Assembly (NCBI GenBank): GCA_032718475.1
Contig: JAUCBJ010005958.1
Coordinates: 1-64,000, forward strand
Origin: Nemertoderma westbladi
Taxonomy: Eukaryota > Animalia > Xenacoelomorpha
Direction of reading: 5' to 3'
DNA: 64,000 nt
The translations under genes and the position numbers were made by a program. Below are positions 1 to 59,570 of the stretch, piece after piece (within the stretch, counting starts at the first letter, position 1; the number at the start of each line of letters is the position of its first letter). The notes under the pieces are model-generated. The model was not told the DNA's origin and did no database searches. It saw only the letters and a program-made list of their open reading frames with translations.

Positions 1-2098
1 TCTAGCGCGATACTTTGCTGCACTTCTTGCAACTCTGCTCTACTTTCCCTCACTGTTCCCTTAAGTTGGTGGACAGTCTCCTGCATCTGTCCTAGCAGGA
101 GATTCATCCCACGCCGTCCCTCTTCCACCCACTCAACCGCCGAAGCGGGAGTCGCCAACATAGTAGCGGGCTGACGCGGGACGACGGGAGACAAATTTTT
201 AATTTCTCTCTCTGCTATCTGGACAGGGATATTCTCTTGGACTGTTCCACCGGGTACAGGCAGTGTAGTACTATGTAAAGGGAATTTAGAGTTAAGCTCT
301 GGAAGTACAGGGGTCTCTAACACAGAAGTGACTTTGGGAACGACAGGCCTAATTATCTCAGGCTCATCAACTATTGTAGAGAGTCTTTGGACCTTAATAC
401 TTTGGGCCGTAGGTTCTATACTACTCAAGTCTGTGCTAGCTAGCTGTCTTCTAACAGCTGGGGGCAAATCAGGCAATTTGCGACGGTAAGATGTTTTTCT
501 ACGCCTACTTAGATGAGATCTATTTCCTCCGCCTTCAGGATCGGTAGTATCGCCTTCCTCCGAGGATGTGTATCCCTGGCGCTTGGGAGTAGATTTTCTC
601 ATCATCTGCATCTGATTAGCAGTATACTGTTTATTTATACTGTCTTGTGTCTCTTGCAGATTTTCCAACTCTAATTGGATAGTCTCCTCAGACGCTCTCC
701 GTTCTGCTTCCGCCACTGTTGCCTTTCTTTCGGCTCCGCCGCTTTTCTTTCTGCTTCTGCTTCTGCCGCTTTTGCCTTTCTTTCGGCTTCTGCTTCTGCC
801 GCTTTTGCCTTTCTTTCGGCTTCTGCTTCTTTTCTTTCTGCTTCTGCTTCCGCCGCTTTTGCCTTTCTTTCGGCTTCTGCTTCTTTTCTTTCTGCTTCTG
901 CTTCCGCCGCCGCTGCTGCTGCTACCTTTCTTCTCTCTATCAGTTCTTTCTTTACTTGCTCTTCTCGGACTCTAGTGAGGCGTAGTTTTTCATCACATTC
1001 AGCTTGGTTTGCAGCTAACATTTCGGCATCGATTGAGTCCAACACAAGCTTGGTTCCTTCACTATTAGGGGAAAGTCCAGACAGCCGTCTCCTCAACTCT
1101 TCGTCTCCTAGGAATCGCTGATAGTCGGACAAATAAATGTCGATAGCGTCTCTAGTTCGCGGTTTCTCGGCGGTCTCTTCGCTTTCCGCTTGAGAAAGGG
1201 TGACATCAGTTTGTTCTTCACAGGTTGATCTCTCAGCCAGCTGGGATTTCCACTGGGCCGTTTCCTGTACTTGGAGATCTACCCGATGTAACCAAGTTTT
1301 GACAGCAACCTGCAGCGACGTGTCCTGTCTTCTTTTGGAAGTTTCCTCAAAGGCTGAGAGGATTAGTCGTATGCGTAGGGTTCTTTCGCGTATTTGATAT
1401 AGCAGCTCTTCCTGCTCTTGAGGTCCTTGAGGTTGTCGAAACAGTTGTTCTTCCAATCGATCCAAGGAGCCGAAGAATCCCTGCACATATCCTGCTGCCG
1501 ACCTCTTCCAAACAGCTGGATCCATTGTATCTTTAGCCACTCCCATCCTGTGTATATCTTCCCAAGTAGCCTCAGACAGATCCAACGGGAGTCCGAGTCC
1601 GGGAAAGTTCCATTGTGATTCAACAATAGATATCAATTCTTCCCTGGCGTATCCCGCGTAATTGTCTTGGGTCGCTCGCTTATTCCTCGCCCAGTCGGCT
1701 TGATGTTCTTCAACCGCAATGAATATAGTAGTTAGCACTGCAGCAGGAAGGGTAAGAAGGGGGTCCGAGTAGACTGTAGCAGCCATCTGCACTCCGCGTT
1801 CGGGGGTCAGCTCTACAGTATCCGAACTGCTGGAGCTATCGGGTCGCTGGGAAGTAGGTTCTTGACCAAGATGTTGCTGCGATAGGACAGCTGCCTCTTG
1901 GTTCCGTTTGACCTGTGCCCGAGTGCCTATGATGGACCTATGGTGGACTAGCCTAGGGTCTGATACTACTGGAGGGATGACCTTTTTTGCAGTAGGAGGT
2001 GAGCTGAACTCCTTTCTTAATCGCTCCACACTCCTATCTGAGTCACAGATAGTTGTATCGATCAGACTGTCTGACAGGTTTTGCTGAGTGTCAGACAT
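1..2098 (-). pseudogene. gag N-terminal region of copy A with an apparent 1-bp frameshift near 735
   Basis: ORF 671-2098 matches the start of ORF 12481-16557 (VVSDPRLV, SSSSDT, RDAIDIYLSDYQRF, LSPNSEGTKLVLD). After about 735 the homologous peptide (AEAERRASEETIQLELENLQE...RAELQEVQQSIAL) continues open in another frame to the window edge. Confidence 0.85.
725..930 (-). repeat. coding tandem repeat (AEAEAERK[E/A]..) in gag of copy A
   Basis: Repeated GCAGAAGCAGAAAGAAA/GCAGAAGCCGAAAGAAAG units. Copy B has only about two such units. Confidence 0.85.
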
Positions 2099-3419
2099 GT
2101 TTAGCTATACAGTTGAATGCCTACTACTATAGTTTCAGTTAAAGCAAGTCTGGTAATTCAGTATGACCGCAAGCCTAGCGATTTATTACCGGTACCGTTA
2201 CTCAGTGTAACGTGATATATATACAATATATTAGAATACCGGTATGCTTATATATATATATAAGTATTATTACAGACTAGATTTGTCACAGAGTACCGGT
2301 ATATAATTTTAGCACAAATATATATAAATATATATAGTAGGCCTATCGTGAATACCGGTATACAGCTGACACTTATAGTATATATAAGTATAATTATGAA
2401 CTAGAATTAATTACAGAGTACCGGTATGATTTCAGCTCAAATTTATAGAAACAAATATAATAAGCCTATGGTAAGTACCGGTATGTCAATTATTTTTTAG
2501 AATAATTGAATTTCTGAATATTTTAGGGTTACTTGGTTACTTTAACTTACTTTATTACCGTTATTTAAGCAGTAGTCCAACTGATATTGAGACCTAGTTG
2601 TTGTATGTCAGGCCTACTATTTATAAATCGTTTGAGTTGATTTATAATATTTATATACCCGTTTAAAAATGGGTTTTGTCAATATTTGAAATAAATGTTA
2701 TTATTTCTGGGAAGTAATCACTACACAAAAGCTGTGCGCTCTCAGTGAAGTGCTACTTATTTGACACTAAAACTGATAATTCTAATTTACCTAAGTTACT
2801 TAATACTACAAATTACTTACTATACTGGTGAGATTAATTCTCTAATTAAACACAACAAAAATATTACGTACGAAATTTTTTAGGGTAATTTTACAGGAAG
2901 TCTACAAACCAGCCTAACAAAGGGTTAGAATTCTGATTATTACAACGGACAGGGTACTACGGTATTTGAAATAATAAGTAGTAGTAAATATACTGTACTG
3001 TCCAGATAGGAAAATACCACCGCCTGACGACCTATAACCGTATCGCTATAGGTACTACGTTATGTATCACGGATTGTTCCTACCCAGAAGCTAATAGAGC
3101 TAACGAATGTGCCTATCAACCACTTTACAACACAAATATACTGCCTACACTAATTACTTCGGAAAGCACTGTACACTAAACCCTAAATTAGGTACAAGTA
3201 CCGGTATAACAAATAATCAGTAGTTAAATATACTTGAACAGTTAAAAGAACCACGGCATCTGCTGGAGTGACCGAAGCACAAAGTCTCCAGTCTTGTACC
3301 TACGCCGAGCAGCCCTGATGTAGTACCGGGGTTAGTTTAACTATAACGGTATGTATAACAAGCACAATTACTGTAGGAATAAACTTGGGGACATGAATGT
3401 TGCGAATAATCGCATAAAC

Positions 3420-4000
3420 TCTGAATAATAAATATTACGCTACCCGTACAGAATACTCAAACAAAATACAAACCAAACGCTGGCAGACTACTATCAAGCC
3501 TAAACAAACTACAGTATGTGCAGATTCTGAAACTGTTAGTTAGTATGCGTTCTAACACGGTAGTACGACTTATTCTTTAAGAGGGGATTGACCTTACAGC
3601 ATATGGCTGCCCCAACTTACTAACGGCACTTTATCAGACCAACTCTACACACGCAGCAATCCCTTCAGGCCTAAGAATAGCTAGACAACAATCCAGCCTA
3701 CAAAATATCTGAGTAATAACTATTACGGTACCCGAACAGACTACACAAACAAACACAGGCTAAAACACTGGCAGACTACGATCAAGCCTAAATAAACTAC
3801 AGTATATGCAGATTCTGAAACAGTTAGTTAGTATGCGTTCTAACACGGTAGTACGACTTATTCTTTAAGAGGGGATTGACCTTACCGCATATGGCTGCCC
3901 CAACTTACTAACGGCACTTTATCAGACAAACTCTACACACGCCGTAATCTCTCCAAACCCAACAACAGTCAGACAGCAGTTCAGCCTACAATTATCTGAA
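3420..4000. repeat. ~290-bp tandem duplication in the 5' UTR of copy A
   Basis: TAGTATGCGTTCTAACACGGTAGTACGACTTATTCTTTAAGAGGGG occurs at about 3541 and about 3829. Confidence 0.85.
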
Positions 4001-4316
4001 CAATCTGAGCAGACTTACACGTCTTCAGCTCAATATTAACTTACTAGGAAATAAAACCGACAGAAATAAGTAAGCTCCAAAAGAAACAAGGGGTGTACAG
4101 TCCCTAATCTCTTAAACAGCCTACCGGTATACAATAATCAAAATCGAATAATACTAAATGTACTTATACAGCAGTACCGGTTAGGACAGTTGGGCCTACA
4201 GACCTACCGAAGTACCGGTTCTGGCAGTTGGACCTACTGACCTACAGAAGTACCGGTTCAGGTTTACCGGTCACTACGGTATTTTGCAACCTTATTGCCT
4301 ACTGCAATAAGATCGT

Positions 4317-4326
4317 TAACTGTTAC
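4317..4326 (-). promoter_or_regulatory. PBS-position 10-mer GTAACAGTTA, complementary to LTR site 5066-5075 (putative self-priming site)
   Basis: Directly abuts the LTR CA end, has no TGG tRNA-type start, and is the exact reverse complement of 5066-5075. Confidence 0.7.
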
Positions 4327-5522
4327 TGTTCGCGCTTTTGAAGACCTTTAGCAGTTTAACCTGCCAAAATTTATATGTCTTTTAGTTAATTAAAACACCT
4401 TTAGCATACGACAATATTTTATGCTAATACACAAAACATTACCCGAAGTCAGCCCATGCGCGATCATTCACCCGATGGATCTACACCCGGGAGGCTGAAT
4501 TCGGCTGCTTAAATTTTATTATTGCAGTGTAAGGTTGCAGTGTAAACTTACTGTATTATTCGATAGATCGTTAATAATTAATCTCTGACAGATATTATTG
4601 GCTTTCGGGAAATATTAACAGTTCCTTTAGGACGTGGCGCTCTATCTATTTAAACAGAACTAGGACTTATACTAAACGCAACGATACCGCTTATGATTAA
4701 AGTATAAGGCGTATTCTTTAGGAAATACTTTGTTACCAATCACAATCATGCACACTATTCTGCCGACCGTCAGTAAATTTGATCACACATAAAGAGAGCA
4801 GCAATTGACTCATGTAGGGTCTGCTAAATAACATTAGATTCAATACACACCACATTAATATAAATCGCAATTGTTATGTATAGCCTGTCTCTCTAACCTG
4901 TAGTGTATCAAGAAAATTGGGAAATTTGGGTGATTTATCCGTATTATCCAAAGAGCAATATTTCCATCAACAAATAGATACAATTAATAACTGACGGTAA
5001 ATAACAGTACAAACAATATGATTAATAGTGAGTTAAGTAAGTTAAGATTGATTAGTTAAGTTAAGGTAACAGTTATACTTTCGATAATTTAAGCAGTTTT
5101 ACTGGAGTTATTCCCAAAAGCCGGTGTTATGGCGAAAAATGGGAACATAACAACAGAATCATATGAAAATCATATGACTAGAATGACTATACGAGTATAC
5201 CAACTACCCTTATTCCCCGAAGCTCCCGTCCAACACAGAGGATGAGCAGTGAGATAGGAAATTCAGTTCAGTAGCTCTGGGATAGGTCGAAATCAACGCC
5301 CACTCAAATTCTATTGGCCGATACGGACAGCAAGGCTAAGGCAACCTCTCTAAGCTAGTTGGCCGATTAAACTGAGCCCAGATATCTCCGTACAGCACAT
5401 CAGCCAATAAGCTGGTAGCTTGCACTATTTTAGTTATAAATCCCTTTGAGAGTATTCTAGCGACTGGGGGGGAACTGGCCAGCAAAGGCAAACGTATCAG
5501 TTATCCCACAAAAGCTTTTACA
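4327..5522 (-). repeat. 5' LTR of copy A (~1.2 kb)
   Basis: TG...CA ends. 4327-~5125 is alignable with the LTRs at 8069 and 18734, and the terminal CAAAAGCTTTTACA is shared. Confidence 0.9.
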
Positions 5523-6943
5523 GGGGGGGGGGGGGGGGGGGAATCGGCCCATTCCTAGTTTTTAGTTGCTGTAACTATGCAAGCACATTACGTACACGCC
5601 CAATTTTTATTGAGAATTACCCAAATTTAATGCCGCATCTTTTGCAAAAAACCACGTTGCAATTGGATTTCGACTTTTCGATGTGGGTGCCACCTCAAAA
5701 TTTGGTCTCCAGCACCAAATTTTTTGAAATTTTCGAATTTTACAAAGTCATTCGTGATTTAGTAATTATTTATGTTTGGGCTATTTTTATTTATTTTTAT
5801 TGGTTTGGATCACTCTAATGCTCTATACAAGTATGTAAGTGTAGTGGTACGTCATTTTTGGAGCACCAAAATTAGGGCGTGGCACTTTAAAATTTCAAAA
5901 TTACTTTATTCGGAAAATTTACTAAAGTTTTGATTTCGAAGCATTTTTATTGGTTTTCTGGAGCGCTGAATCGATTGAAAGTAATATAGAAGCCTGAAGA
6001 CTTAGTGGTTCGCCATTTTTGGTGCACCAAAATTAGGGCGTGGCACTTCAAATTTTGAAAAATACGAGATTCGGAAAATACACTAAAGTTTTGATTTCAA
6101 AGCATTTTTATAGGTTTTCTGAAGCACTGAATCGATTGAAAGTAATATAGAAGCCTCAAATCCTTGGTGTACGTAATTTTCGGTGCACCAAAATTAGGGC
6201 GTGGCACTTCAAATTTTCAAAATTACTTTATTCGGAAAAAACACTAAAGTTTTGATTTCAAAAAATGGCTAACCTCTAAGTCTTCAGGCTTCTATATTAC
6301 TTTCAATCGATTCAGCGGTCTAGAAAACCTATATAAATGCGTTAAAATTTCAATTTTGGTTTATTTTCCGAATCTCGTATTTTTCAAAATTTGAAGTGCC
6401 ACGCCCTAATTTTGGTGCACCAAAAATGGCGAACCACTAAGTCTTCAGGCTTCTATATTACTTTCAATCGATTCAGCGGCCCAGAAAACCTATAAAGATG
6501 CGTTGAAATAAAAAATTAGGGGCATTTTCTGAATATCTAATTTTTCAAAATTTGAAGTGCCACGCCCACTTCTTAGGTGCACGAAAAATAGCATCCACTT
6601 CAATTTTTGGAAATGGAATATAATCACATTCGATTCAGCGTCTTGAAAAACCTACTAAATCTAGCCAACACTGCCACACTATTAGTTTTTAGAAAACGAA
6701 AAATTTTGTAATTTTGTCCTGGGACTACTTTTATTTTTCATCAAAATTATGATTCCCTGCTTATGAAATTTTAACTTTTTAAGGTTTGGTAGTGTTCATC
6801 TATAGTTGTTTCACCAACAGCCCAAATTTTGTAGGATTTCATTGGACGATTACAAAAATATAGTGGGTGGGCCGAATCGCCCCCCCCCCCCCCCCCCCCC
6901 CCCCAGTGGTGCTAATGGTCAAAACACCCCAGTGGTAATAGGG
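5523..6943. mobile_element. piggyBac-like non-autonomous element (right part; left end displaced by copy A)
   Basis: Ends TAATAGGG|TTAA. G-tract AATCGGCCC / GGGCCGAATCG C-tract subterminal inverted motifs. Internal AAATTAGGGCGTGGCACTT repeats in both orientations. Confidence 0.6.
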
Positions 6944-8068
6944 TTAAGGGCACGTGTTTGTCCATAAATTTGACTATTAAGGGGGAGGGGGGGGGGGGGG
7001 GGGGGGGGGTGGGGGTACACCATTTTGGTCCAAAATATGTCGAAATTTTTTTTATGGTCTATTATAATGCACCATTGAATGGTGTTTCCAAATCTGAAAA
7101 CCGCTATTTAATAGCTCTTTTAGTTTTCAAGTTATGTAAATTTCCATTTAGGGAATCCTATTGAAATTACTATTACTATGTATAATGAAAGGTCGATTAT
7201 CTCCAAATATTTTTTTCATGAAATTGTCAACTTCAAAACCCTACTACTTCTACAATTTTTGAGTAATTAGTCTGAAACTTCCTGTGGGTGTCTAGATAGC
7301 CACCCTGCATAAAAGTATCAGACAACTTTTCGAAATTTTTTGTTAATAAAATTTAATACTATTTATAAAAAACCTAAAAATTAGCATAAATTTGCAGCGC
7401 CACCTAGCGGTGCAGAATTATTTTAACAAAATTTCGCCTGATAGTTATGTTGCCCCATCTTTGATCTATCATATAAAAAAACTTTCATGTGATTCTAAAA
7501 TTTTCAATATGGGGGTTTTCTGGGGTGGTGATTGCATTTCCGATGTCAGTTTTGACGTTTGATGAATTCCAGTCTGTCAGTCTGTCTGTTTGTCGGACAA
7601 TCTGTCTGTCTGTCAGTCAAAAATTAAGGAAACACACTACCAAACTGAAATTTAGGTTATGGGGGTTTTCCTGGTCGGTGATTTCAACACCGAAGTTAGT
7701 TTTGACGTTTGAAGAATTCTAGACTGTCTAACTGTCAGTCTGTTTGTTTATCAGACAATATGTCCGTCTGTCAGTCGAAATTTAGGAAACGACTCGACAT
7801 CGCTAAAAATTGATTTAAAGGGGTTTTCCTGGTCGGTGATTCCATTTCTGATGTCAATATTTGAATATAATGGCTTTGTGTTGGGTCTGTATTCATGTCG
7901 GTCTGTCCGTCAAAATATAACAGACAGATAGACAGCATAATATACCATCTAGAATCCATTAACCGTTAAAATGGACATAAGAAATGGAATCATAGACCAG
8001 GAAAACCTCTACAACAATATTTTCAGTTGTGTATTTCGTTCATTACTTTTTGACTGACAGACAGGCCA

Positions 8069-9244
8069 TGTTTGCGCTTTTGAAGACCTTTGACAGTTTA
8101 ACCTGCCAAAATTAGAATGTCTTTTGGATGATAGATAGTCTTTAGCCTATGACGAGTATTTGATACACTACATTAGCCGAAGCCAGTCTATGCGCAATCA
8201 TTCACCCGTTGGATATACCCGGGAGACTGAGTTCGGAGCTTAATGATTGATGGTGTAAGCCTACCGTATTATTCGACTGATCGTAATATATAATCTCTGA
8301 CAAATATTATTCACTTTCGGGAAATATTAACAGTTCCTTTAGGACGTGGCGCTCTAAATATGTAAACAGAGTTATGGCTTAAACTAGACACAACGAAAAG
8401 GCTATAGATTCACGTATATGGCGCATTCTTTAGGAGATGCTTTGTTATCAGTTACACTCATACACAATGCTGCACAATACTGCACACTAATCTGCCGACC
8501 TTCACTAAATTTGGTCACGTATAAAGAGAGTAACAGACAATACATGTCGGGCCTATAAAATAGCATGAGATTCACTTCAAACCACTTAACATAGGTCGCA
8601 ATCGTTTATCTGTAACCGATCTCTCTAACCTTTAGTATATCAAGAAGATTGGGATGTCGGACTATTGATCAGTATTCCGATATAATATTTCATCAACAAA
8701 TATAACGAATAATCAACAGCAAAGCAGTAAAGTTAAGGTATAAATGATTATTAAGTGAGTATAATTGGTTTGATTTGTATGTAAGTAGCTCGATAACAGA
8801 TATACGTTCTATAATTAAGCCTACTAATGTAAAGCTAAAGACTGAAACACGGAGGTGCCAAAAGCCGATGTTCTCTGGCTCTGGGCAAATACAACACTGA
8901 ATTCCTGAGTTTCGTATCCACCTCCAACACAGAGGCAAAAAACGCTCTGATTGGTCAACTAAATCAACAAGAGAACAAAGAAACAAAGAAACGTCGACGT
9001 GGCAATATCAGCTGTTAGCCGTCGTCATGGTAGCGACACTGTTTTCAAGAGTATCTAGCTTATCGCGTCACGAGATTGCGGATTATGTCCTCTAAAGTAC
9101 GAATACAGTACAAATACAGAAGAAATGACTTTTATGTCCTCTAAAACACCAGTACAGCAAGGACACGGCCTTTTTATGCCTGGCAAACCAACTACAGAGT
9201 ACTTTAAGGGAAAATAACCGGTTAATGACGCAAAAGCTTTTACA
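8069..9244 (-). repeat. 3' LTR of copy B
   Basis: Near-identical to 18734-19910 (about four substitutions and one 1-bp indel seen by eye). TG...CA ends. Confidence 0.95.
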
Positions 9245-9252
9245 CCGCTCCC
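9245..9252 (-). promoter_or_regulatory. polypurine tract GGGAGCGG
   Basis: Purine-rich run immediately before the 3' LTR on the minus strand. Confidence 0.7.
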
Positions 9253-9270
9253 AGAAAATGGGATTTAAGT

Positions 9271-10850
9271 CTATAAAATATAACAAATCACAGTTTCTAA
9301 AATATAAGAATACTCTAAACAGTTAGTCTTTCTTACGCGGACGGCGTTTACGCAGCCTTTTGAGGCTAGCAAGAGTCCTTTTCTCTTTGGGGCGAGCCAC
9401 TTTACTAGGAGGGCTATAAATCCTGGGTGAAGGGTGCAATATGATTGCATCAGAAGGTGTAGGATTATGGTCGGGGTATCCGCCGTTTCGATATGCTTCT
9501 CCTCGAGCTGATTTTCCTCCGCTCGTAGCTGGATACGTTCATCCAAAAACTCTCGCAGAGAATGGGGTTGTCTAAGTTCGATATCTTCTTAGAGATTCTG
9601 GATTTCACAATCGAACTGAGATAAAGACAATTCGTTTATCGCTTGGACTTGCTGTTACAACTTACGTTTATCTGAACAAACGCAGGTTTCCTTTCTGATC
9701 TTTGTGGAATAGCGTTTAACTCGTTTGGTACAACGTTCTCCGCCACTTTGGTGACAGGTTATATCGTGTTAAGCCGGGATGATGGTAAGGGTTAAACGGC
9801 GATATTAAATGTCCGCGTCCCAATCCGGCTAGGGAGAATGGGCTAATATCTAGGAAGCCCACAACTGGGGTGCCACCGACTAATTGTTCAGGTAACACTA
9901 GATCTTTGAGCAGTGAGTACAGCTCGGGAGGATCCGTCATACTAATAGGATCAAGAGTCTGAAGTCTCACTAGGGAATGAGGAGTTCTGATCGAGTATTC
10001 CGAAACTCTGATCATTGGTTTATTTAAGGATCGTCTGAGTCGAACGATCGTAGGTGATACATCGAACAAGTTTCGCTCGAAACTCCCGTAAGTATAGCGA
10101 GTAAAACCGTGTTTAAAGCAACGTCTCCGCGGATGTTTATGTCTTTCCGTTTGTTGGTTGGGTCTTGGGCATTCATCGCAATAATACCAAAAACGCACGT
10201 CTTGTAGGGGAAACGCGAGTGATCTTTCTCCAGCTTACAATATTCCTCCATCCGTTCGAAGCTATCCGGTACAACAGGTAGCGATCGATCGGCGGTAAGA
10301 TACATCATAGTGGAATAGAGCCGTTTGAGTTCCACCATGCGGTCATGATGTATACCTTGAGGATATCGAGTTTCTAGATTCTGTTGACTGGTAATATCGA
10401 GATAGGTTTCTCTCAAGAATTCCAGGTATTTGGTGGAGTCGCTGCGTTTATCCGGCTCTTCGACATCTGCACTTTCGAGTCGGTTTCGAATAGAATTTTC
10501 GTGTTCGAGTCTCAGTTTATCGTTCCGCTTCCGCTGGGTATGATATTTAAATAAACCATTTCCCTTTGGTGTCTATATCGTTCGTATCGTGTAGGTCGAG
10601 AGGATGACCAGTAGTTAAGAAGTCCATATACGTACCATTACGATGCGTATAGCGAGCGATGAATTTTCTACAGTCTAACCCACGCGCAAGTTGCTCCCGG
10701 GACATTGGCGGTTAGATATAACGACCATCGTCCTCCGTAGTAGTTGGACCAGCGTCGCCGCGTATCAGGCTATCAACAAACGCTTGTAAAGGTAGAGTAT
10801 ATCGCTCCCTGATACCAAGATCATCTTCTATCAACTCAATCATATCTGCT
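9271..10850 (-). pseudogene. decayed accessory ORF of unknown function downstream of gag-pro
   Basis: Chain of same-strand open segments (MIELIEDD.., MSREQLARGLDCRKF.., 10024-10416, 9716-10198, 9271-9546) separated by single stops or frameshifts. More GC-rich than its flanks. Confidence 0.55.
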
Positions 10851-11669
10851 ATATAAGTTTATCCATATTATAATGAGTTTATATTTAGGCGAGCGGGCGT
10901 CGCTGCCTACCCCTCTCTGCCCCCGGACAGTGCGAGATCCTCAGCGCTGGTGTACTTTCGCCGATGTGCCTATCGCCAACGTCGTAGCTGCACAACGACT
11001 ACAACAACCAGCACGAGCCACTCCACCGTCCGTCCCAAAGGCTTAGATATACTTCAGGTTCTTACTGGAGAGTTAGGGTTACTTTCACAATTGCGACTCG
11101 CTACTGTAAACACACCTTAGTAGTAACATTCGCCTACAAACGCACAAATTCCACGTAACAGTCACAAATGGTACACATTCTATCACACATTCGGGTCATT
11201 TGTCCGTTAGTCAAGTGCCTTCCAGAATGTCACGTTGTTATTATGTATTCTTGGATACTAGCGGTGTGCTATTTATTCCGTATGCTATTCAATACGCAAG
11301 CCCTTTATTGTTCTTTTAACTCACTTCTAATTCTAGCGTGGTTGTTGCCATGGTGACATTATGGAAAGCTAGCGGTAGAATTAGGGTAATTCTCATGCAT
11401 ACAGATCTGGGATGCTATTTAATAGTAATTCTTTAATTGTCAATATCCTCTCTATATATGATTTTATGAATTTTATCGGCTATTGACTATACATTGGAGA
11501 TTCTCACACACAAATACACTTAATATAGTGAATCTCCGCTCCCATGATCTATTAATTAATGGAATTTTGGGAATGTTATAAATTGTATAAAAATGACAAT
11601 TTATCAAATTCATTAAAAGATGAATTTAAATTTATTCCCGTAAATTTTATTATTTAATATTAAATAGAC

Positions 11670-11935
11670 ACAATTTTATTCCAGAACATGTCTGGGGACT
11701 GGGATCCTTGATTCTAGGAAATTGGTCTTTTTAAGAGTAAGTGCTACGATATCTTAATAGACTAGAATTTTAAAGGATCTGATATTTGACAGATTTTTGT
11801 AAATATTAATAATTAATATTTAGGATGGGCACCAATTTATTCCAGAACTTGTCTGGGGACGTTAACCATTGATTCTAGAAATTTGTCTTTCAAGTATATC
11901 GGTGGGTGCCGCGATATCTTAATCGACTAGAATTA
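11670..11935. repeat. diverged tandem duplication (~160-bp period) in the 3' region of copy B
   Basis: TTTATTCCAGAAC.TGTCTGGGGAC...GATATCTTAAT.GACTAGAATT occurs twice. Confidence 0.7.
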
Positions 11936-12480
11936 CAGATGGTCAAAGGGTTTAACAGATTTATTTTGCGTTATACGCTACTGTTAAAGGGACATCACGC
12001 TACTATATGTATTATTTAATATACGGTATGAGAGCAATATCGCACGAAGCAATGTCAGTGTGAAGAGGCAAGTCGTTTCCAAGGTCTACCCAGAGCTTGG
12101 TTTAGCCGAGACACGAGGATCTGAACTTTGCATTCCTAATACTCTGCCTACCAATAATACTGAATATAGTAGTGGCTTTATTGTACTTTAGTAAGTACAA
12201 AGATTTCATCTTACTGTAGTCACGTATTGATAATGTAATACGGGCAGTAAGGAAAGAGAAAAAGAATTATTTCTCGCCGTCGCGCTAAATATATAATATA
12301 CGTAATTAAATAATAAACGCGAATATATATTGCACTAATCTACTAGATCGCTAAAATAACATTCTACTAAATAAAATTAAAGAAAACGATTATAATAAAA
12401 TGACATAATAATACATACATAATATAAAATAATAAAAATAAATATAAAATAATATAGTCACACACCCACTCCGTATGTTG

Positions 12481-15400
12481 TTACGTTATGGAGTCCCTAG
12501 ATATTTGTTGGATTAGGGAGGTGGTCGTGGGAAGATTATCTTGCCTTCCATAGTTTCCGGACAGTTTTCGGTCTCTTTCCGGTAAACATAAACGACCAGC
12601 TGGGCGATTGAGTGGTTGTGTTACTTTCTCCGCTCCCTTGGCCTGTCTAATCTTCACCGGGGTAAGATGAGGAGGCCATTCATCTTCTTTACTTAGGAAG
12701 TTGGGTCCACCTAACCGGTTTGGAGTATCTGTAAGTTCTTGAGGAGTTGCTCCTCTGGAAGCGATGTCGGCTAAATTGATCGTCTCGGGGCAATGTCTCC
12801 ATTGATCTTCATTGGAGTTGATGTCGTCATTATCTGAGGAGTGTGGTGTTCCCTCAGTTGGGTCGTCTCCCTCACTAGTATCATCTTCCCATTCACTTAC
12901 CTGGCAGACGCGATCTTGAGGTAGTCTTTCTCTGAGCGTTCTACGGGAAGGTCCAGTAAGGTACCAACCTACTCTAGTTCTTCCCGCATAAGCTTGTAGT
13001 GGTTGCGGTTGAGCAGGTCGTTTCTCCAATGTCTCCAGCGCCTCATGTGCGTTTTGACCGATTAATATTTGTACTCCAGGATAATCGGTGTCGAATCTAG
13101 GAATGTTAAGTTGTTGGGCATGATCATCTTCGTCCCAATTATAAGGTTCCACTTGGGTGGTAGCGAAGTTCTTTATTGCCACCATTTTGACTGACCTTAT
13201 ACTGTATTCTCCTAGTTTATCCTGTGGAGTGGACAACTCACCTATATAATAGTCGGCAGCCACAGCAGATTTCCAAACCTGCATGATCCCTGACATGTTT
13301 AGCTTGGTTCGGAACTTGGGTTGTCCAGCAAAGATGTCTTCGGCTAGTTCTTTATCGATGAATGTTCCTGTGCTGCCGGAGTCCAGGAGGGCGTTCACTA
13401 TATAGCTCTTCTGAGGTCCGTGGACCCGTAACTGGACTACAGGAAATTCTCGGATTCCTACATTTGAAGTTGGCGCTTTCCAAGATTGTTGTTGATCTGA
13501 AGTAGTTAGGGTGAGGTCGCTGTCTGTGTCTTTCTCATACATGAGTGCTCGATACACTGCGGTGGCGTTTATTAAGTAACAGGATTCGTTTTGGTCGGAG
13601 AATTCGTCCGTATAGAATCCTTCCATCTCAGATTGATCAGTGTCGTTCACATCACTGAATTGGACATGTAGTTCGGAATCACTCACCTGACTCGGACTAT
13701 TTCGCTCGAATTCAGTGTGCAACAAGATATGATGTTTCGCACCGCACTTTGCACACCTTGCATCGGAGTAACAGGTTCGCCGTTGGTGTCCTCGTCTGAG
13801 GCAATTATAACACAACCGCTTATCCCACATGACTTCCCGTCTCTCTTTTAATGATTTCTTTAAGAATTCATCGCACATATTCAAGCGGTGGGGCCCGTCG
13901 CACAGCACACATTTGGGTTTGATGTTACTTACTTTAACATGTGCTGTGTGGTGCACGTTCGTTCTTTCCTCGGGCTTTCTCACCTGAATTCTCTTGGGAG
14001 ACGTAGGAGGAGTTTTTCTTACCTGTTCTCTCCGGTCATTGGTTCGAGACTTGAATTTACTTACCTGGTCTTTAGGCATTTTATTTACGTAATAAGATCT
14101 TTCAGTGTCTTTCCCGCTATCCTCTCTTTGAGAAGTCTGGTTTTCGCCGTCGTCTGTATAACACACTGGTGTTACCCTTCTCCTAGAAACGGGTTTCTCA
14201 CTCACCTTGTTTTCCAGTGTCTTCTCTCTGGACTGCCTTAGGAGCTGTAATTTCACTTCTCCATCTAAGAATGACATGAGATCAGCCATGGTAGGGTCTC
14301 GTCGTTGTTGTTCCATCATATATAACACTTTCTTATCCCAGCGTGTACCTACTCCACCCTTCGGTAAAGCAGAAGCCACTGCTCTAATAACCATAGCACT
14401 CTGATACTCATGAGACTTACCTAGCCAATCTAATTGTCTGCAGATCTCCTGAATCTCATCGGAAAACTCTATAATTCCGCTGCTAATAAACTTTCGGGGC
14501 GCTACCAACTTTGCATACAAATACCCAGCTATGTTATTCCTATTACCATACCTGATGTTTAGTGTATCCCAAACTTGTCTTAATCCGTCTGGATGTCCAA
14601 TAAACTTTAACGCCATTAACTTGGGAGATCCTTCCAAGCACTCGATGAGGAATCTAAGTTTCTCTCCATTAGATAGTACAGAGTTCTGTATGTTATCTTT
14701 GTAATATTCATTAAAAGGTAACCATTTCATCTCATCTCCATTGAACTTGACGATCTCTCCCACCTTTACCGCTTGCCGGGCTTCGGTTCTAGCCATTTGA
14801 CGCGTAAAATTTTCTTGGGCCATCGTGTTATTTAATATCGAGTTATCGGTATATAAATTTCTTGGATTATGATCCGGTCTATAGGGAATATCATTATCAA
14901 CAGGTCTATAATTACCCTTAATAGGGTTCACTATAGGAGTTTCTACTTCACTAGCAGTATAGATGCGTGTAGGCTCCACACCTTGCGCATGAGATACTTC
15001 AGACCTAACAGGTTGACACATTGTTACAGGGGGTGGTGGTATACCCTTTTGTAAATTTACTAATTTATCGCGTTCTAGCGCGATACTTTGCTGCACTTCT
15101 TGCAACTCTAGCCTACTTTCCCTTACTGTGCCCTTTAACTGTTGAACAGTCCCTTCTAACTCTCGGACCTGTTGAGAGGAGCGTACTCGATTCTCCTCCA
15201 TCTTTGCGAGGAGAATGTCCATCCCCCGCCGTCTCTCGTCCACCCAATCAACCGCCGAAACGGTATCCGCCAACGCTGTAGCGGGCGGACGAGGGACAAC
15301 GGGCGACAAATCATGAATATTTCGCTCGGAGTCCAGGGCATGAACTGTCTCATGGGCTGTTCTGCTGGGCACAGGTAGCTTAGTGCTGTGCAAAGGGAAT

Positions 15401-16557
15401 TGAGAGGTAGGTTCAGGGAGTACAGGTGTCTCTATGACCGAAAGGGTGGCTTCGGGAACAGGCCTAACTATTTCAGGCTCATCTACTATAGTAGGGAGTC
15501 TCTCTATTGTAATTATTTGGTCTGTGGGTTCTGTACTACCTAAGTTGGTGTTATTTAGTTGTCTTCTAACAGCTGGAGGCAAATCAGACAATTTCTGACG
15601 GTGGAATGTTCTTTTACGTCTGCTTAGGTGAGATCTATTTCCTTTGCCTTCAGTGTCGGTGGTATCGCCTTCCTCAGATGATGTATAACCTTGTCTTTTG
15701 GGAGTAGATCGATTCATCATCTGCATATTACTAGCTGTTAACTGTTTATTAAAGTTGTCTTGTCTCTCTTGAAGATTTTCCAACTCTAGTTGGGTTGTCT
15801 CTTCAGATGCCCTCCGTTCTGCTTCTGCCACTGCTATTTTTCTTTCCGCTTCTGCTGCTGCCACTGCCGCTGCTGCTGTCTTTCTATCTTCTATACGTTT
15901 TTTCTTTACTTGTTCTTCTTGAACCTTAGCGATGCGGATACTTTCATCGAATTTAGCTTGGTTCGCAGCTAACATTTCCGCATCGATTGCGTCCAGCACA
16001 AGCTTGGTTCCTTCACTATTAGGGCTAAGCCCCTCCAGCCTTCTCCTCAACTCTTCATCTCCTACAAAGCGTTGATAGTCTGACAGATAGATGTCAATAG
16101 CATCCCTCTTATGCGGTTTCTCTGCTGTCACTTCGCTTTCTTCTTGAGAAGAAGTGGCGTCGGTTGATTCTTCATAGGTTGGCCGCTCATCATAAACCTT
16201 ATCCACCATCTTCGCTCCGCGTTCGGGCGTCCGCTCATCAGTATCCGAACTACTGGAGCTATCGGGCCGCTGAAAACTAGGTTCTTGGCTAGGATGTTGC
16301 TGCTGTTTGACAGCTGCTTCTTGATCCCGCTTGACTTGGGCCCGAGTGCCGATGATAGACCTACGATGTTGGACTAGCCTAGGATCTGACACTACTTCTG
16401 TAGGGATGGCCTTTCTCACAGCAGGAGGTGACTTAGACTTGGATCTAGGATGTTCTATACTTGGATCTGGGTCACTGATCTTTTTAAGACACTGTCTAAC
16501 AGTCATTCTAACACTATCTAGGAGACTATCCGACAGTGTTTGGGTCGTTTCAGACAT
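12481..16557 (-). CDS. BEL/Pao Gag-protease polyprotein with only remnants of RNase H and integrase C-termini (1358 aa)
   Basis: DUF1759-like gag core (KFNGDEMKW..LSNGEKLRFL..LEG..L.IRYGN), three BEL-type zinc knuckles (CVLCDGPHRLNMC, CYNCLRRGHQRRTC, CAKCGAKHHILLH), aspartic protease ALLDSGSTGTFI..ILIG..TRVGWYLTGP, then WRHCPETINLADIASRG..GPNFL..EDEWP and LNRPAGRLCL. No YxDD motif. Confidence 0.9.
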   Translation of the reverse strand: MSETTQTLSDSLLDSVRMTVRQCLKKISDPDPSIEHPRSKSKSPPAVRKAIPTEVVSDPRLVQHRRSIIGTRAQVKRDQEAAVKQQQHPSQEPSFQRPDSSSSSDTDERTPERGAKMVDKVYDERPTYEESTDATSSQEESEVTAEKPHKRDAIDIYLSDYQRFVGDEELRRRLEGLSPNSEGTKLVLDAIDAEMLAANQAKFDESIRIAKVQEEQVKKKRIEDRKTAAAAVAAAEAERKIAVAEAERRASEETTQLELENLQERQDNFNKQLTASNMQMMNRSTPKRQGYTSSEEGDTTDTEGKGNRSHLSRRKRTFHRQKLSDLPPAVRRQLNNTNLGSTEPTDQIITIERLPTIVDEPEIVRPVPEATLSVIETPVLPEPTSQFPLHSTKLPVPSRTAHETVHALDSERNIHDLSPVVPRPPATALADTVSAVDWVDERRRGMDILLAKMEENRVRSSQQVRELEGTVQQLKGTVRESRLELQEVQQSIALERDKLVNLQKGIPPPPVTMCQPVRSEVSHAQGVEPTRIYTASEVETPIVNPIKGNYRPVDNDIPYRPDHNPRNLYTDNSILNNTMAQENFTRQMARTEARQAVKVGEIVKFNGDEMKWLPFNEYYKDNIQNSVLSNGEKLRFLIECLEGSPKLMALKFIGHPDGLRQVWDTLNIRYGNRNNIAGYLYAKLVAPRKFISSGIIEFSDEIQEICRQLDWLGKSHEYQSAMVIRAVASALPKGGVGTRWDKKVLYMMEQQRRDPTMADLMSFLDGEVKLQLLRQSREKTLENKVSEKPVSRRRVTPVCYTDDGENQTSQREDSGKDTERSYYVNKMPKDQVSKFKSRTNDRREQVRKTPPTSPKRIQVRKPEERTNVHHTAHVKVSNIKPKCVLCDGPHRLNMCDEFLKKSLKERREVMWDKRLCYNCLRRGHQRRTCYSDARCAKCGAKHHILLHTEFERNSPSQVSDSELHVQFSDVNDTDQSEMEGFYTDEFSDQNESCYLINATAVYRALMYEKDTDSDLTLTTSDQQQSWKAPTSNVGIREFPVVQLRVHGPQKSYIVNALLDSGSTGTFIDKELAEDIFAGQPKFRTKLNMSGIMQVWKSAVAADYYIGELSTPQDKLGEYSIRSVKMVAIKNFATTQVEPYNWDEDDHAQQLNIPRFDTDYPGVQILIGQNAHEALETLEKRPAQPQPLQAYAGRTRVGWYLTGPSRRTLRERLPQDRVCQVSEWEDDTSEGDDPTEGTPHSSDNDDINSNEDQWRHCPETINLADIASRGATPQELTDTPNRLGGPNFLSKEDEWPPHLTPVKIRQAKGAEKVTQPLNRPAGRLCLPERDRKLSGNYGRQDNLPTTTSLIQQISRDSIT

Positions 16558-17869
16558 GTTTGTTTACACAGTTGAATGCCTACGGCTATAAATACAGTTA
16601 AAGCAAGTCTAGTAAGTCAGTATCACTGTTAGCCCAATAATTAATTACCGATACTGCTACTCAGTGGAGCGTGATATATATATAATATATTAGAATACCG
16701 GTATGCTTATAGTATATATAAGTATTATTACAAACTAGGTTTTCACAGAAACCGGTATATAATTTTAGCACAAATATATATAAATATATAATAGGCCTAT
16801 CGTGGATACCGGTATGCAGTTTACACTTATAGTATATATAAGTATAATTACAGACTAGAATTAATTACAGAATACCGGTATGATTTCAACCTAAAATTTA
16901 TAGAAATAAATATAATAAGCCTATTTTAAATACCGGTATGTCAATTATTTTAAATAATTGAATTTCTGAATTTTAAGGGTTACTTGGTTACTTTAACTTA
17001 CTTTATTACCGTTATTTAAGCAGTAGTCCAACTGATATTGAGACCTAATTGTTATATGGCAGGCCTACTATTTATAAATCGTTTGAGTTGATTTATAATA
17101 TATATATACCCGTTTTAATGGGTTTTGTCAATGTTTGAAATAAATGTTATTATTTCTGGGGAGTAATCACTACACAAAGCGGTGCGCTTTCAGTGAAGTG
17201 TTACTTATAGGACACTAAAACAAATAATTCTAATTTACCTAAGTTACTTAATACTACAAATTACGTACAATTCGGGTGAGATTACAATCTCTAAATAAAC
17301 ACAAAAATTTACAAAAAACACAAAATACGAATTTTCAGGGTAATTTTACAAGAAGTCTACAAACCAGCCTAACAAAGGGTTAGAAATCTGGTTATTACAA
17401 CGGACAGGTTACTACGGTTTTTGAAAATAATAAGTAGTAGTAAATATACTGCGCTGTCCAGATAGGAAAATACCACCGCCTGACGACCTATAGCCGTATC
17501 GCTATAGGTACTACGTTATGTATCACGGAGTGTTCCTACCTAGAAGTTAATAGAGCTAACGTACGTGCCTATCAACCACTTTACAACACAAATATAATGC
17601 CTACACAAATTACTCTCGGAAAGTACTGTACACTAAACCCTAAATTAGGTACAAGTACTTGTACAACAAATAATCAGTAGTTAAAAATACTTGAACAGCC
17701 AAAAGAACCACGGTATCTGCTGGAGTGACCGGTGCACAAAATCACCAGTCTTTACCTACGCCAAGCAGCCCGTATAGTACCGGGGTTAGTTTAACTATAA
17801 CGGTATGTATAACAAACACAATTACTGTAGGAATAAACTTGGGGATATGAATGTTGCGAATAATCGCAT

Positions 17870-18460
17870 AAACTCTGAATAATAAATATTACGCTACGCG
17901 TACAAACTACTCAAACAAAATGCAGACCAAATACTGACAGACTACTATCAAGCCTAAACAAACTACGGTATATGCAGACTCCGAAATGATTAAGTAGTAT
18001 GCGTTCTAACCCAGTAGTACGACTTATTCTTTAGATGGGGGTTTACCTTACAGCGATGGCTGCCCCTACTTCCTAACCGTTCTTTATCGGACAGATGCTT
18101 TGCACACACCGAAATTTCCTCAAACCCAACAACAGCCAGACAACTATCCAGCCTACAAATTATCTAAATAAAATTATACGCTACCCGTACAGACTACACA
18201 AACAAAGTACAGACCAAACGCTGGCGGACTCCTATCAGGCCTAAATAAACCACAGGACATGCAGACTCCAAAATGGTTAAGTAGTATGCGTTCTAACCCA
18301 GTAGTACGACTTATTCTTTAGATGGGGGTTTACCTTACAGCGATGGCTGCCCCTACTTCCTAACCGTTCTTTATCGGACATACACTCTACATGCACTGCA
18401 ATCCGTTCAGACTTAATCAACAGTTAGCCAACAGTCAAGCCTACAAATTATCTGTACAAT
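17870..18460. repeat. ~290-bp tandem duplication in the 5' UTR of copy B
   Basis: TAAGTAGTATGCGTTCTAACCCAGTAGTACGACTTATTCTTTAGATGGGGG occurs at about 17991 and about 18278. Confidence 0.85.
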
Positions 18461-18722
18461 CTGAGCAGGCTTACACGCCTTCTGCTCAATATTAACCTAC
18501 AAATAAATAAAACTTGACAGAAACAAGTAAAATCTCAATAAAAAACCAGGGCGGCCGTCCCTGATTAATTATTAAGGCCTACCGGTATATAATTATAAAA
18601 ATCGAATAATACTGCTGTACCTGTACTGTAAGTACCGGTTCGGATGATCAGGCAGTCAGGGCTACTGGTTACCGGTCGACCGGTACTTTCGACTAGATTG
18701 CTTACACCGCAATCCAGAAGCA

Positions 18723-18733
18723 ATATCTGTTAT
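18723..18733 (-). promoter_or_regulatory. PBS-position 11-mer ATAACAGATAT, complementary to LTR site 19458-19468 (putative self-priming site)
   Basis: Directly abuts the LTR CA end and is the exact reverse complement of 19458-19468 (also 8793-8803 in the 3' LTR). Confidence 0.72.
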
Positions 18734-19910
18734 TGTTTGCGCTTTTGAAGACCTTTGACAGTTTAACCTGCCAAAATTAGAATGTCTTTTGGATGATAGA
18801 TAGTCTTTAGCCTATGACGAGTATTTGATACACTACATTAGCCGAAGCCAGTCTATGCGCAATCATTCACCCGTTGGATATACCCGGGAGACTGAGTTCG
18901 GGGCTTAATGATTGATGGTGTAAGCCTACCGTATTATTCGACTGATCGTAATATATAATCTCTGACAAATATTATTAACTTTCGGGAAATATTAACAGTT
19001 CCTTTAGGACGTGGCGCTCTAAATATGTAAACAGAGTTATGGCTTAAACTAGTCACAACGAAAAGGCTATAGATTCACGTATATGGCGCATTCTTTAGGA
19101 GATGCTTTGTTATCAGTTACACTCATACACAATGCTGCACAATACTGCACACTAATCTGCCGACCTTCACTAAATTTGGTCACGTATAAAGAGAGTAACA
19201 GACAATACATGTCGGGCCTATAAAATAGCATGAGATTCACTTCAAACTACTTAACATAGGTCGCAATCGTTTATCTGTAACCGATCTCTCTAACCTTTAG
19301 TATATCAAGAAGATTGGGATGTCGGACTATTGATCAGTATTCCGATATAATATTTCATCAACAAATATAACGAATAATCAACAGCAAAGCAGTAAAGTTA
19401 AGGTATAAATGATTATTAAGTGAGTATAATTGGTTTGATTTGTATGTAAGTAGCTCGATAACAGATATACGTTCTATAATTAAGCCTACTAATGTAAAGC
19501 TAAAGACTGAAACACGGAGGTGCCAAAAGCCGATGTTCTCTGGCTCTGGGCAAATACAACACTGAATTCCTGAGTTTCTGTATCCACCTCCAACACAGAG
19601 GCAAAAAACGCTCTGATTGGTCAACTAAATCAACAAGAGAACAAAGAAACAAAGAAACGTCGACGTGGCAATATCAGCTGTTAGCCGTCGTCATGGTAGC
19701 GACACTGTTTTCAAGAGTATCTAGCTTATCGCGTCACGAGATTGCGGATTATGTCCTCTAAAGTACGAATACAGTACAAATACAGAAGAAATGACTTTTA
19801 TGTCCTCTAAAACACCAGTACAGCAAGGACACGGCCTTTTTATGCCTGGCAAACCAACTACAGAGTACTTTAAGGGAAAATAACCGGTTAATGACGCAAA
19901 AGCTTTTACA
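18734..19910 (-). repeat. 5' LTR of copy B
   Basis: Near-identical to 8069-9244 and followed by the TSD GGCCA. Confidence 0.95.
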
Positions 19911-21532
19911 GGCCAACAAATAGAAAGACAGACAGACAGACAGATAGACATGCAGGCAGGCAGGCGGAATGACAGACAATCTAGAATACATTAACGTTGA
20001 GACTGACATTATAAATGTGATCACTAAACAGGAAAATTCCTACAGTATGGCAAAATTGTACATTGCATGTGTTTCTTAATTTTGTCAGACTGACCGACTG
20101 ACAGACAAACAGACAGCTATAACTCGAGAACTAAAAGAGATCTCGCTATGTCGTTTTCAGTTTTGAAATTGCCATTAAATTTTGATACAGATTCCGTAAA
20201 AACAAGTTTTTGATTTTTTTAAATTTTGACCACAAACACGTGCCCTTAAATAATCTAAAACTGGTAATAAAATATACTTGCAAAAAAGTGACCAATATAA
20301 ATAGACCATAAGCGATCTTAAGGTAGACACCCAAAATATGAATAAGAAAATGAATCTTGGAAAAGGATGGCGCTATCGATTGAGATCGATCGATGAAAAT
20401 TATTGTTGTAATAAGTCCTTGAGTAAGTTAAAAATTAAATTAAGTAGTTAGTATTAGTATGTCTGTTTTTGCTGTCTGTTTTAGTCTGTTTTGGCATTCT
20501 TTTGATATTGCGACTACAGTAATGCGATTTCGCAAAAGGCAAACAAATCACTATAAGATTGAAGAATAACAGCAGTACGACTGGTGAAATATCGTCGGAG
20601 ATACTTTTTTTAAATGAATGGTCGAGTAGCTATAATATATATAACAAATAACCGAATGAGAGAAGGCTTTCACATTCAAACATTTAGCCCTCTAGCGGCA
20701 AACATTAGAAGTTTAGATTGAGTCCAGTCCCACGAAGAAGCAGCGAATTCATTCGAGTATATTGCAATATGAATATCAGTCAAAAATTATGCAATGGGGT
20801 TCACGACTCAATCGGACACTATCGATCACGAATCAATCGATCACGAACACTATCGGTTTTACTAGAATCTGGAACATTTGTGGGAGTGAGTTAAAGACTA
20901 ATTCCACAATTAGATCCGAACTAACTTGAGGTTACCTTTCTTGGTAACTGAAACATGGCGATTTTTATTCAATTCTCGTGGAGTAAATTTATACTGATAC
21001 ATCTCTATGCATCCCTTTATCTATCTGGAAGATTGTTTTCGCAATGAGGACTAGCTAGTGCTTTATCTCATTCTTTGCGGGCCTGATAGATAGTATAACC
21101 AAGGTGGCATTTTTGTATGTGTGGCATTCCTTGACTTTCATGAGACTCCGCTTAAGGTCTTGAAGATGCGGTGATCTCGTGAATGTTATGAGTGTTGTTA
21201 TGTTGTGCGAGATGTGGCGGCCCAATTGTTTTGATATGGTGTGGCATAGCATTATCAATGCTATGCCGTTTATAGATAGGAGGAATCTGGAAGATCTCAA
21301 GAGGAACTACATCAATACCTCATGTATACCTTATGCTGCTCCTGGTATTAAGGCCCCGGTAGCGCTACTTCAATCATTTTTTCAAAATTTTTTTTTAATT
21401 TCATCTAGAGCAGCATCTTTATCAAGATTCAAAATTTGAAAACCTTTTAGCAAGATCTGTCTTACTTCTCGAGATATTGCTGTCTGTTCGTTTTACTGTC
21501 GGTTTTTCCGTCAGTATGTCTGTCCGTCAATA

Positions 21533-46060: not shown

Positions 46061-46319
46061 CACTGCTCCAACACCCACTCTTGACCAACTAAAATGATGA
46101 ATAGGCTATTCCAACTTCTGCCCAAGACCATCAGTGGCCAGAGATGGTCATGTCAGGGATGTAGAAACATAGTAAATTATCTCACCACTTACGGCAGTCA
46201 GTCTCGACACTCTCTACACAGCACTGCATGTGCTGTAAGCACATCCTGACATCTAAACCCCGGATTGTTGTAACGGAAAACATCTGACTGCTGATTAACT
46301 GCCGGCACCGCATATTTTA

Positions 46320-46910
46320 TACTGTTATTCATTGTTGTTTGGTAACATATTTAATGGATGTTTATATTTGGAGAATACGTATGAATAAATCAATAATCCC
46401 CACTAACTTTCTTTATTATTGAGGTAAGCAAGGGAACATTAGTAACAATTGCTTGGCTCAAATTCTATATGAATTTTATACTATTTCATAACCCCAACGT
46501 AAGCGAGCTAAGTTTCTCCTTATATATGAGTAAAATTGGTAACAGTCGGCAAATTAACGTGTTTCAGTATTATTGTCAGTAAAGTGAGTGTGAGCGAATA
46601 ATTACACATTCCTAAAGAATGTAAAACTGTGATGTTCCATAACCCTCCGTTGTGATTAGTATAAGTCATAACTCTGTCTGATATTTAAAGCGCAGCATCT
46701 AAAGTACTCAAAACTGTTGATATTGCCCTGAAAATAAACATAGTTTTTGGAGATTATATAGTAGAGATCAATCGAATAATGCAAAGTAGCCTACCCACTG
46801 CCACTCTCGGCTATAGAATTTTACTGTGGTCATATTTTGTGCGGGCTGTCAGACAACATAAGACACATAAATTAGCAGGTTAAACTCTAGAAGGTCTAAA
46901 AGCGCGAACA
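46320..46910 (+). repeat. diverged solo/partial LTR related to BEL/Pao copies A and B
   Basis: Ends GCAGGTTAAACTCTAGAAGGTCTAAAAGCGCGAACA like LTR A/B. Internal matches TCCTAAAGAAT, CATAACTCTGT, AACTGTTGATATT. 5' boundary uncertain. Confidence 0.75.
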
Positions 46911-59563: not shown

Positions 59564-59570
59564 AAAAAAA
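59564..59570 (-). terminator. Pol III terminator (T7) after 5S
   Basis: AAAAAAA on the plus strand directly adjacent to the 5S 3' end. Confidence 0.75.

Follow-up and report, generated by a model that had tools for sequence, protein, structure and literature searches.

Covarying self-complementary primer binding sites suggest self-priming in a BEL/Pao retrotransposon family

A 64,000-nucleotide (nt) stretch of the Nemertoderma westbladi genome (assembly GCA_032718475.1, contig JAUCBJ010005958.1, positions 1 to 64,000; hereafter, the window) carries two related BEL/Pao long terminal repeat (LTR) retrotransposons, elements A and B, on its minus strand. In both elements the primer binding site (PBS), which directly follows the terminal CA of the 5' LTR, is an exact complement of a site within that LTR, here called the partner. 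Differences between the two PBSs are mirrored by changes in the two partners. We consider it probable that A and B prime minus-strand DNA with the first ~11 nt of their own RNA in the manner of Tf1, rather than with a tRNA.

Results

The PBS of element B (ATAACAGATAT) is the exact reverse complement of positions 19468-19458, and that of element A (GTAACAGTTA) is the exact reverse complement of positions 5075-5066. These 11-nt and 10-nt complements lie at the coordinates reported in an initial annotation of the window. The partners occupy homologous positions in the two LTRs (443 of 1177 in B and 448 of 1196 in A), ~730 nt upstream of the PBS. The LTR ends in ...GCAAACA at 18734 in B and ...GCGAACA at 4327 in A and, as the initial annotation had noted, pairing in both copies begins at the first base past the CA and never enters the LTR. 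Eight of the ten aligned pairs are identical between A and B, and the remaining two are altered on both sides, such that both of the PBS differences described earlier (2/2) are indeed compensated in the LTR. When the PBS of one copy was matched to the LTR of the other, pairing reached 7 nt at most in either direction. The flank past the B 3' LTR provided a complement of only 4 nt.

The PBS:partner complementarity is real and clearly exceeds what chance would give. Dinucleotide shuffling of the LTR reproduced the match in 48 (A) and 18 (B) of 20,000 trials, or in 243 (A) and 68 (B) of 20,000 when an offset of 0-5 nt was allowed. In a harsher empirical control, inflated by inverted repeats, 235 and 240 of the 20,927 positions on each strand across the window (~1.1%) had an inverted match of at least 10 nt within 1180 nt. 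In simulations of independent drift at 15-30% per site, conditional on a complement in the ancestor, a perfect 10-mer with at least two paired changes was obtained in 418-634 of 2,000,000 trials. Fortuitous complementarity within an AT-rich repeat, or a single template-switch copy passed down to A and B, could draw on this ~1.1% background and on the shared ancestry of the two copies, which are not independent. Nevertheless, the homologous position, the exact abutment on the LTR and the two compensated changes all speak against such an origin, as do the conservation edge and the further both-side changes in neighbouring helices presented below. We regard it as very improbable.

A tRNA 3' end as primer requires TGG in the PBS. 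No TGG stands next to the LTR in either element: the first 60 leader bases of A contain none, and the sole TGG of B is at +18. Hence, the leader sequences agree with the initial annotation that neither 5' LTR is followed by a TGG-type tRNA PBS. The TGG at +18 was rejected as a PBS since it lies 17 nt from the LTR and is absent in A, and the TGG past the B 3' LTR was rejected as it belongs to the target duplication. Given that TGG is absent at the LTR end, Tf1-type priming is the simplest account. According to the International Committee on Taxonomy of Viruses (ICTV), the BEL/Pao PBS is 18 nt long and complements the 3' end of either tRNA-Arg or tRNA-Gly (PMC8742986). With no TGG at either LTR, A and B lack such a PBS.

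A host RNA (tRNA half, tRNA fragment or small RNA) could nonetheless prime in trans, in which case the LTR:PBS helix would be regulatory or serve packaging and hide the PBS. A fixed host primer would keep the PBS constant, so its variation between the copies counts against a host primer. The copies differ at 2 of 10 PBS positions, one of them the base facing the primer 3' end, and this variation tracks the LTR. The lack of TGG flush with the LTR and the stop of pairing exactly at the primer-defined LTR boundary point the same way. No tRNA gene was detected in the window by ARAGORN, and an Rfam scan returned 5S rRNA only. More compatible with a host primer are the abundance of alternative predicted helices in the RNA and the common core CTGTTA, which resembles a tRNA-Asn anticodon loop. 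Moreover, BEL/Pao elements are described as tRNA-primed (PMC8742986), as the initial annotation had stated, and half-tRNA primers are known in copia lineages (PMC6317226, excerpt). Altogether, priming by a host RNA appears quite unlikely.

We examined Logan contigs from five sequencing runs (X1-X5) for evidence from the wider family; variants in these contigs are unphased and contig depth does not equal copy number. Contigs from X1-X3, which are runs from three studies, covered the B LTR in 30 of 30 bins with many variants, consistent with B belonging to a large family. Conservation within this family stopped at 19457, one base 3' of the B partner. Between neighbouring bins, depth in X1 fell from 63,581 at 19455-58 to 2,655 at 19451-54, and contigs were loose at 19457 in X1 (11), X2 (7), X3 (3) and X5 (4). 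In the other direction, conservation reached ~55 nt upstream of the partner (19457-19512). The least-covered bin within the B LTR was 19388-19431, and the longest G-free run of the LTR begins at the 3' end of the partner in both copies. The A and B LTRs become alignable shortly upstream of the partner. Together, the conservation edge, the G-free run and the onset of alignability suggest that the partner 3' end acts as a functional boundary. The switch from unalignable to conserved LTR sequence that the initial annotation had placed near the partner was correct to a resolution of ~50 nt, with 14-21 of 50 positions identical upstream and 31 of 50 in the partner bin.

A variant at PBS position 8 (18726) accounted for 31-51% of depth in X1-X3, among the variants listed. 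The matching partner variant (19465), predicted beforehand, occurred in a single contig of X2 and a single contig of X3. Run X4 carries a different species label, and its LTR pieces, over 18640-19940, were 80-95% alike and had a PBS variant at positions 8, 10 and 11. The LTR family may therefore extend to a second species. Coverage of X4 at the partner site was almost nil, and the other two partner variants predicted from X4 were not seen at the partner in the contigs searched, which did not include those of X4. A search with a 19-base LTR-end pattern returned one viral and two metagenome loci, none of which were LTR relatives, and a BEL polyprotein alignment search of viral contigs gave 39 pattern matches and no relatives.

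The window contains a third, more distant LTR (Table 1) that is followed by a different repeat, also present at 52267 and 36495. The initial annotation had pointed to a CTGTTAT in this LTR as an analogue of the partner, which did not hold up. This motif, at 46322, is 582 nt from the LTR end, as opposed to 739 and 724 nt for the partners. In alignment it falls on a second CTGTTAT of A (5007) rather than on the partner, and the bases following the LTR match it over 6 nt only. We therefore rejected the third LTR as uninformative about priming. Separately, its last three bases and the six that follow (46911-46916) complement a 9-nt site at 46263-46271, near a possible partner position; this match extends into the LTR end and could be fortuitous. 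A MITE-like structure (miniature inverted-repeat transposable element) consisting of 62-bp inverted repeats (94%) around short tandem units lies at 45291-46060, 100 nt upstream of the third LTR.

When the RNA was folded from the partner start, predicted PBS pairing in A was 0.96-0.97 at all four leader lengths. A systematic search of LTR against leader predicted additional helices around the PBS. An 11-nt LTR arm common to both copies would pair over 12-13 base pairs (bp) with the leader in A and B. In A, the predicted helices are 4564-4553:4154-4143 (12 bp), 4539-4530:4294-4285 and 4528-4519:4310-4301 (10 bp each). The duplex formed by the PBS-adjacent leader uses different letters in each copy, with two 10-bp helices in A and helices of 9, 5 and 4 bp in B. 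One both-side change between A and B falls in the inner hexamer helix, and three of the eight pairs of the leader hairpin are changed on both sides. With the LTR:leader helices formed, the PBS would be 65-69% unpaired, and opening it fully would cost 0.9-1.8 kcal/mol. Duplexes flanking the PBS are predicted on the leader side in both A and B, and on the LTR-end side in B, where the A sequence also allows one; this comparison covers two sequences. The folds predict a scaffold of several helices, with LTR segments ~130-240 nt upstream pairing both with the LTR end and with the PBS-adjacent leader while the PBS stays largely open.

These data also bear on where the RNA begins. Self-priming might not employ the first bases of the RNA, either because transcription starts upstream and a longer 5' fragment is cut past the partner, or because the partner forms the 3' end of the RNA and the 3' LTR copy primes. 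The ~55 nt of conserved sequence upstream of the partner would fit an upstream start, as would initiator-like hexamers in this region. The 60 nt upstream also lack a TATA box, and downstream no poly(A) hexamer is conserved. However, the distance from hexamer to partner varies between 26 nt in A and 38 nt in B, and the helix is lost in nested folding with upstream starts. A longer fragment is also difficult to reconcile with pairing of just 10-11 nt that ends at a pyrimidine-purine step common to A and B. For a 3'-end origin, a poly(A)-type hexamer lies upstream of the partner in A only. A spliced primer is unnecessary as the match is contiguous, and GT after the partner is absent in both copies. 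Self-priming from a site other than the RNA start seems unlikely.

Both elements belong to the BEL/Pao LTR retrotransposons. Element B spans 19910 to 8069 on the minus strand (11.8 kb), and its LTRs differ at 5 of 1177 positions (99.6% identity). These few differences, together with TGGCC at both ends and GGGAGCGG at the 3' LTR, indicate that B is a complete, young insertion. Its single open reading frame (ORF) matched DUF1759 with an E-value of 1.2e-10, and the zinc-knuckle and aspartic-protease matches were weak. Among 32 homologues of B, 29 contained PF05380 and 31 contained PF03564. Both are markers of BEL/Pao, with PF05380 being the Pao-specific family. Element B shares with BEL/Pao elements a BEL-type gag and protease, LTRs, a polypurine tract (PPT) and a target-site duplication, and it lacks their pol order of reverse transcriptase (RT), RNase H and integrase. 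No RT or integrase core was found in B when the 32 homologues were aligned to the window with tblastn, as matches were restricted to gag-protease and a pol remnant of ~50 residues (12673-12828). With its RT and integrase core gone, B is non-autonomous and would need a helper. Neither a close protein relative nor an RT-coding autonomous partner with such a PBS was found, the best whole-query identities being ~26-38%. The 3.2-kb region downstream of the B ORF (9253-12480, minus strand) has ORFs of 182, 172, 105 and 71 codons stop to stop, and is possibly captured accessory sequence.

Element A is a sister of B whose pol region is outside the window. The 5' leaders are ~2.2 kb in both B (16564-18722, minus strand) and A (2105-4316, minus strand) and have repeated units containing ACCGGT, as well as a common tandem duplication of ~290 nt (3321-3888 and 17775-18341). 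Units of 161 nt occur in direct and inverted orientation immediately outside the A 5' LTR (5824-6599), and a run of ~20 C on the minus strand adjoins the start of the A LTR.

Elsewhere in the window, an RVT_1 ORF and scattered, related copies of a different retroelement are located at 21980-23128 (plus strand), 53065-53956 (minus strand) and 43953-44526, and were unmatched by the BEL homologues. A 1325-codon open frame at 31760-35737 (plus strand) includes a 24-nt tandem array (33404-34279) and has no Pfam match. An intronless-looking DUF3105 ORF of 296 codons is at 26186-27076 (minus strand), and its atlas neighbours are eukaryotic DUF3105 clusters. The 5S rRNA gene copy is at 59570-59689 (minus strand; Rfam RF00001, 99 bits).

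Table 1. Coordinates of features in elements A and B and of the third LTR. Pairings and folds are predicted.
Feature	Position	Strand	Details
Element B 5' LTR	18734..19910	-	1177 nt, TG...CA
Element B 3' LTR	8069..9244	-	1176 nt
Target-site duplication TGGCC, left copy	19911..19915	-	
Target-site duplication TGGCC, right copy	8064..8068	-	
Polypurine-tract-like GGGAGCGG	9245..9252	-	adjoins B 3' LTR with zero spacer
B single ORF	12481..16563	-	1360 codons stop to stop; gag (DUF1759), zinc knuckles, aspartic protease motif, short pol remnant
B 3' region	9253..12480	-	3.2 kb; short ORFs, no Pfam match at cut-off
B PBS ATAACAGATAT	18723..18733	-	11 nt, flush with LTR CA, no TGG
B partner site, predicted self-primer	19458..19468	-	predicted +1 at A19468
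B G-free linker	19391..19453	-	63 nt, the LTR's longest stretch lacking G; lowest-conservation LTR bin in family contigs
B LTR arm	18931..18943	-	predicted 13-bp pairing with leader 18612-18600; same 11-nt core in A
B LTR segment	18903..18925	-	predicted pairing with PBS-adjacent leader 18721-18700; shuffles 2/3000
B inner LTR hexamer	18857..18862	-	predicted pairing with 18742-18737, three bases from LTR end
B hairpin near LTR end	18748..18788	-	equal predicted fold in A (4381-4341)
B leader hairpin	18694..18716	-	A counterpart 4311-4291; alternative to LTR:leader duplex
Element A 5' LTR	4327..5522	-	1196 nt; element leaves window at left end
A gag region	3..2104	-	two reading frames; 60-78% amino-acid identity to B
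A PBS GTAACAGTTA	4317..4326	-	10 nt, flush with LTR CA
A partner site, predicted self-primer	5066..5075	-	homologous +1 at A5076, unpaired
A G-free linker	5015..5069	-	55 nt, longest G-free run of LTR
A LTR arms	4519..4564	-	predicted pairing with leader; shuffles 0/3000
Third, more distant LTR	46160..46910	+	~69% alike in 3' part; left end uncertain, no internal region

Discussion

We infer self-priming, as the initial annotation did, from the covarying complementarity and from additional support in the conservation edge, the predicted flanking duplexes and the matching family variant. By analogy with Tf1, transcription would start at the A following GT in GTATA (19468 in B, 5076 in A). The 5' end of the RNA would then cross ~730 nt to the PBS, forming a pseudoknot, and RNase H from a helper element would cut past nucleotide 11, where the G-free linker begins. 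RT would extend the resulting 11-nt fragment, with enzymes supplied in trans for B, and the new PBS would be a copy of the primer made during plus-strand synthesis. Such copying would carry changes in the partner into the PBS, which would explain the covariation. A PBS flush with the CA would be expected from a primer that binds at the LTR end and a PPT side without spacer. Relative to the initial annotation, our analysis adds the conservation edge at the partner, the G-free variable linker and the predicted helices flanking the PBS with both-side changes. The loss of RT and the integrase core in B, and with it the need for a helper, had also gone unmentioned in that annotation.

Several observations weigh against self-priming from the RNA start. 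The covariation rests on two related copies, and the position-8 variant adds little to it because the contig variants are unphased and the variant repeats the change already present in A. Predicted PBS pairing in B was 0.97, 0.29, 0.96 and 0.0 with leaders of 45, 80, 110 and 150 nt, respectively. The zero at 150 nt arises because the LTR:leader helices cross the primer:PBS helix and nested folding cannot hold both. Predicted pairing also went to zero if the RNA started at least 20 nt (B) or at least 60 nt (A) upstream, and the primer:PBS duplex is weak (-10.5 kcal/mol) across a loop of ~730 nt. The LTR:leader helices were specific in one direction only: pairing of the A LTR with the B leader was predicted at -23.4 kcal/mol, compared to -25.3 and -21.2 kcal/mol for the cognate pairs, and the reverse cross of B LTR with A leader was -8.6 kcal/mol. 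The inner hexamer helix was predicted at 0.94 in B and below 0.4 in A. Furthermore, the initiator-like TCAGTC lies ~40 nt upstream of the B partner (near 19508). Finally, the third LTR lacks such pairing, and no RT-coding partner sharing this type of PBS was found.

The literature we searched yielded no report of self-priming in BEL elements; the slash form "BEL/Pao" was unsearchable, and subscription journals, GyDB and Repbase Reports were outside the scope of this search. No case is named in the excerpts examined from PMC4600332, PMC6934838 and PMC3601003, and term look-ups in the main text of three BEL surveys (PMC3118150, PMC554778 and PMC6238403) gave no hit for PBS, priming or tRNA. Only in the Tf1 group of gypsy elements is self-priming proven; for TAR copia it is predicted. 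Its presence in A and B, if true, would place self-priming in all three LTR retrotransposon superfamilies as a recurring solution, and would bear on whether self-priming or tRNA-priming came first (discussed in PMC3601003, excerpt). It would also make the element independent of tRNA supply and, probably, let it escape silencing by tRNA 3' fragments. Annotation pipelines that demand a tRNA PBS would miss or mis-score such families. The family appears abundant and recently mobile, and self-priming makes a sharp prediction for it: the RNA should start at a single base, and the primer should be 11 nt long.

The closest known system is Tf1, in which the RNA's initial 11 bases anneal to the PBS and RNase H cleaves between bases 11 and 12 (PMC7175516, excerpt), in agreement with the initial annotation. 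As in Tf1, Tf2, Tj1 and the Tf1/sushi group, the PBS of A and B is flush with the LTR CA and complements ~11 nt of the element's own LTR. Tf1 needs a three-duplex pretzel in which two further duplexes flank the PBS (PMC10085805, excerpt), and in A and B duplexes of PBS-adjacent sequence with the LTR downstream of the primer are predicted. The Tf1 PBS is copied into cDNA and begins with ATAAC (PMC11042837, excerpt), as does the PBS of B, although we give little weight to this five-letter coincidence. Unlike the Tf1/sushi elements, which are Ty3/gypsy chromoviruses, A and B have BEL-type homologues and fall outside that group. They also differ from Tf1 in having an LTR of ~1.2 kb with a ~730-nt loop and, for B, in lacking RT and depending on helper enzymes. 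Priming was shown by experiment in Tf1, whereas in A and B we infer it from sequence.

Among the Belpaoviridae as described by the ICTV, whose replication is regarded as poorly understood and tRNA-primed (PMC8742986), B is typical in its LTR length (0.2-1.2 kb range), a PPT of ~10 nt and a gag with DUF1759, zinc knuckles and protease. It is atypical in being 11.8 kb long and pol-deleted, and neither A nor B has a tRNA-type PBS. We lean slightly towards the view that a BEL/Pao lineage independently evolved Tf1-style priming, with a pseudoknotted pretzel, a loop of ~730 nt, an ATAAC junction and high-copy non-autonomous members whose primer is cut in trans. Self-priming is listed for Tf1/sushi and predicted for Tcn1 and TAR copia (PMC6317226, excerpt). 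Like TAR (Houba, Osr-1) copia and Tcn1 gypsy elements in that source, A and B have an LTR complement of at least 10 nt located 0-5 nt past the LTR, while the TAR copia and Tcn1 gypsy elements of plants belong to other superfamilies and hosts.

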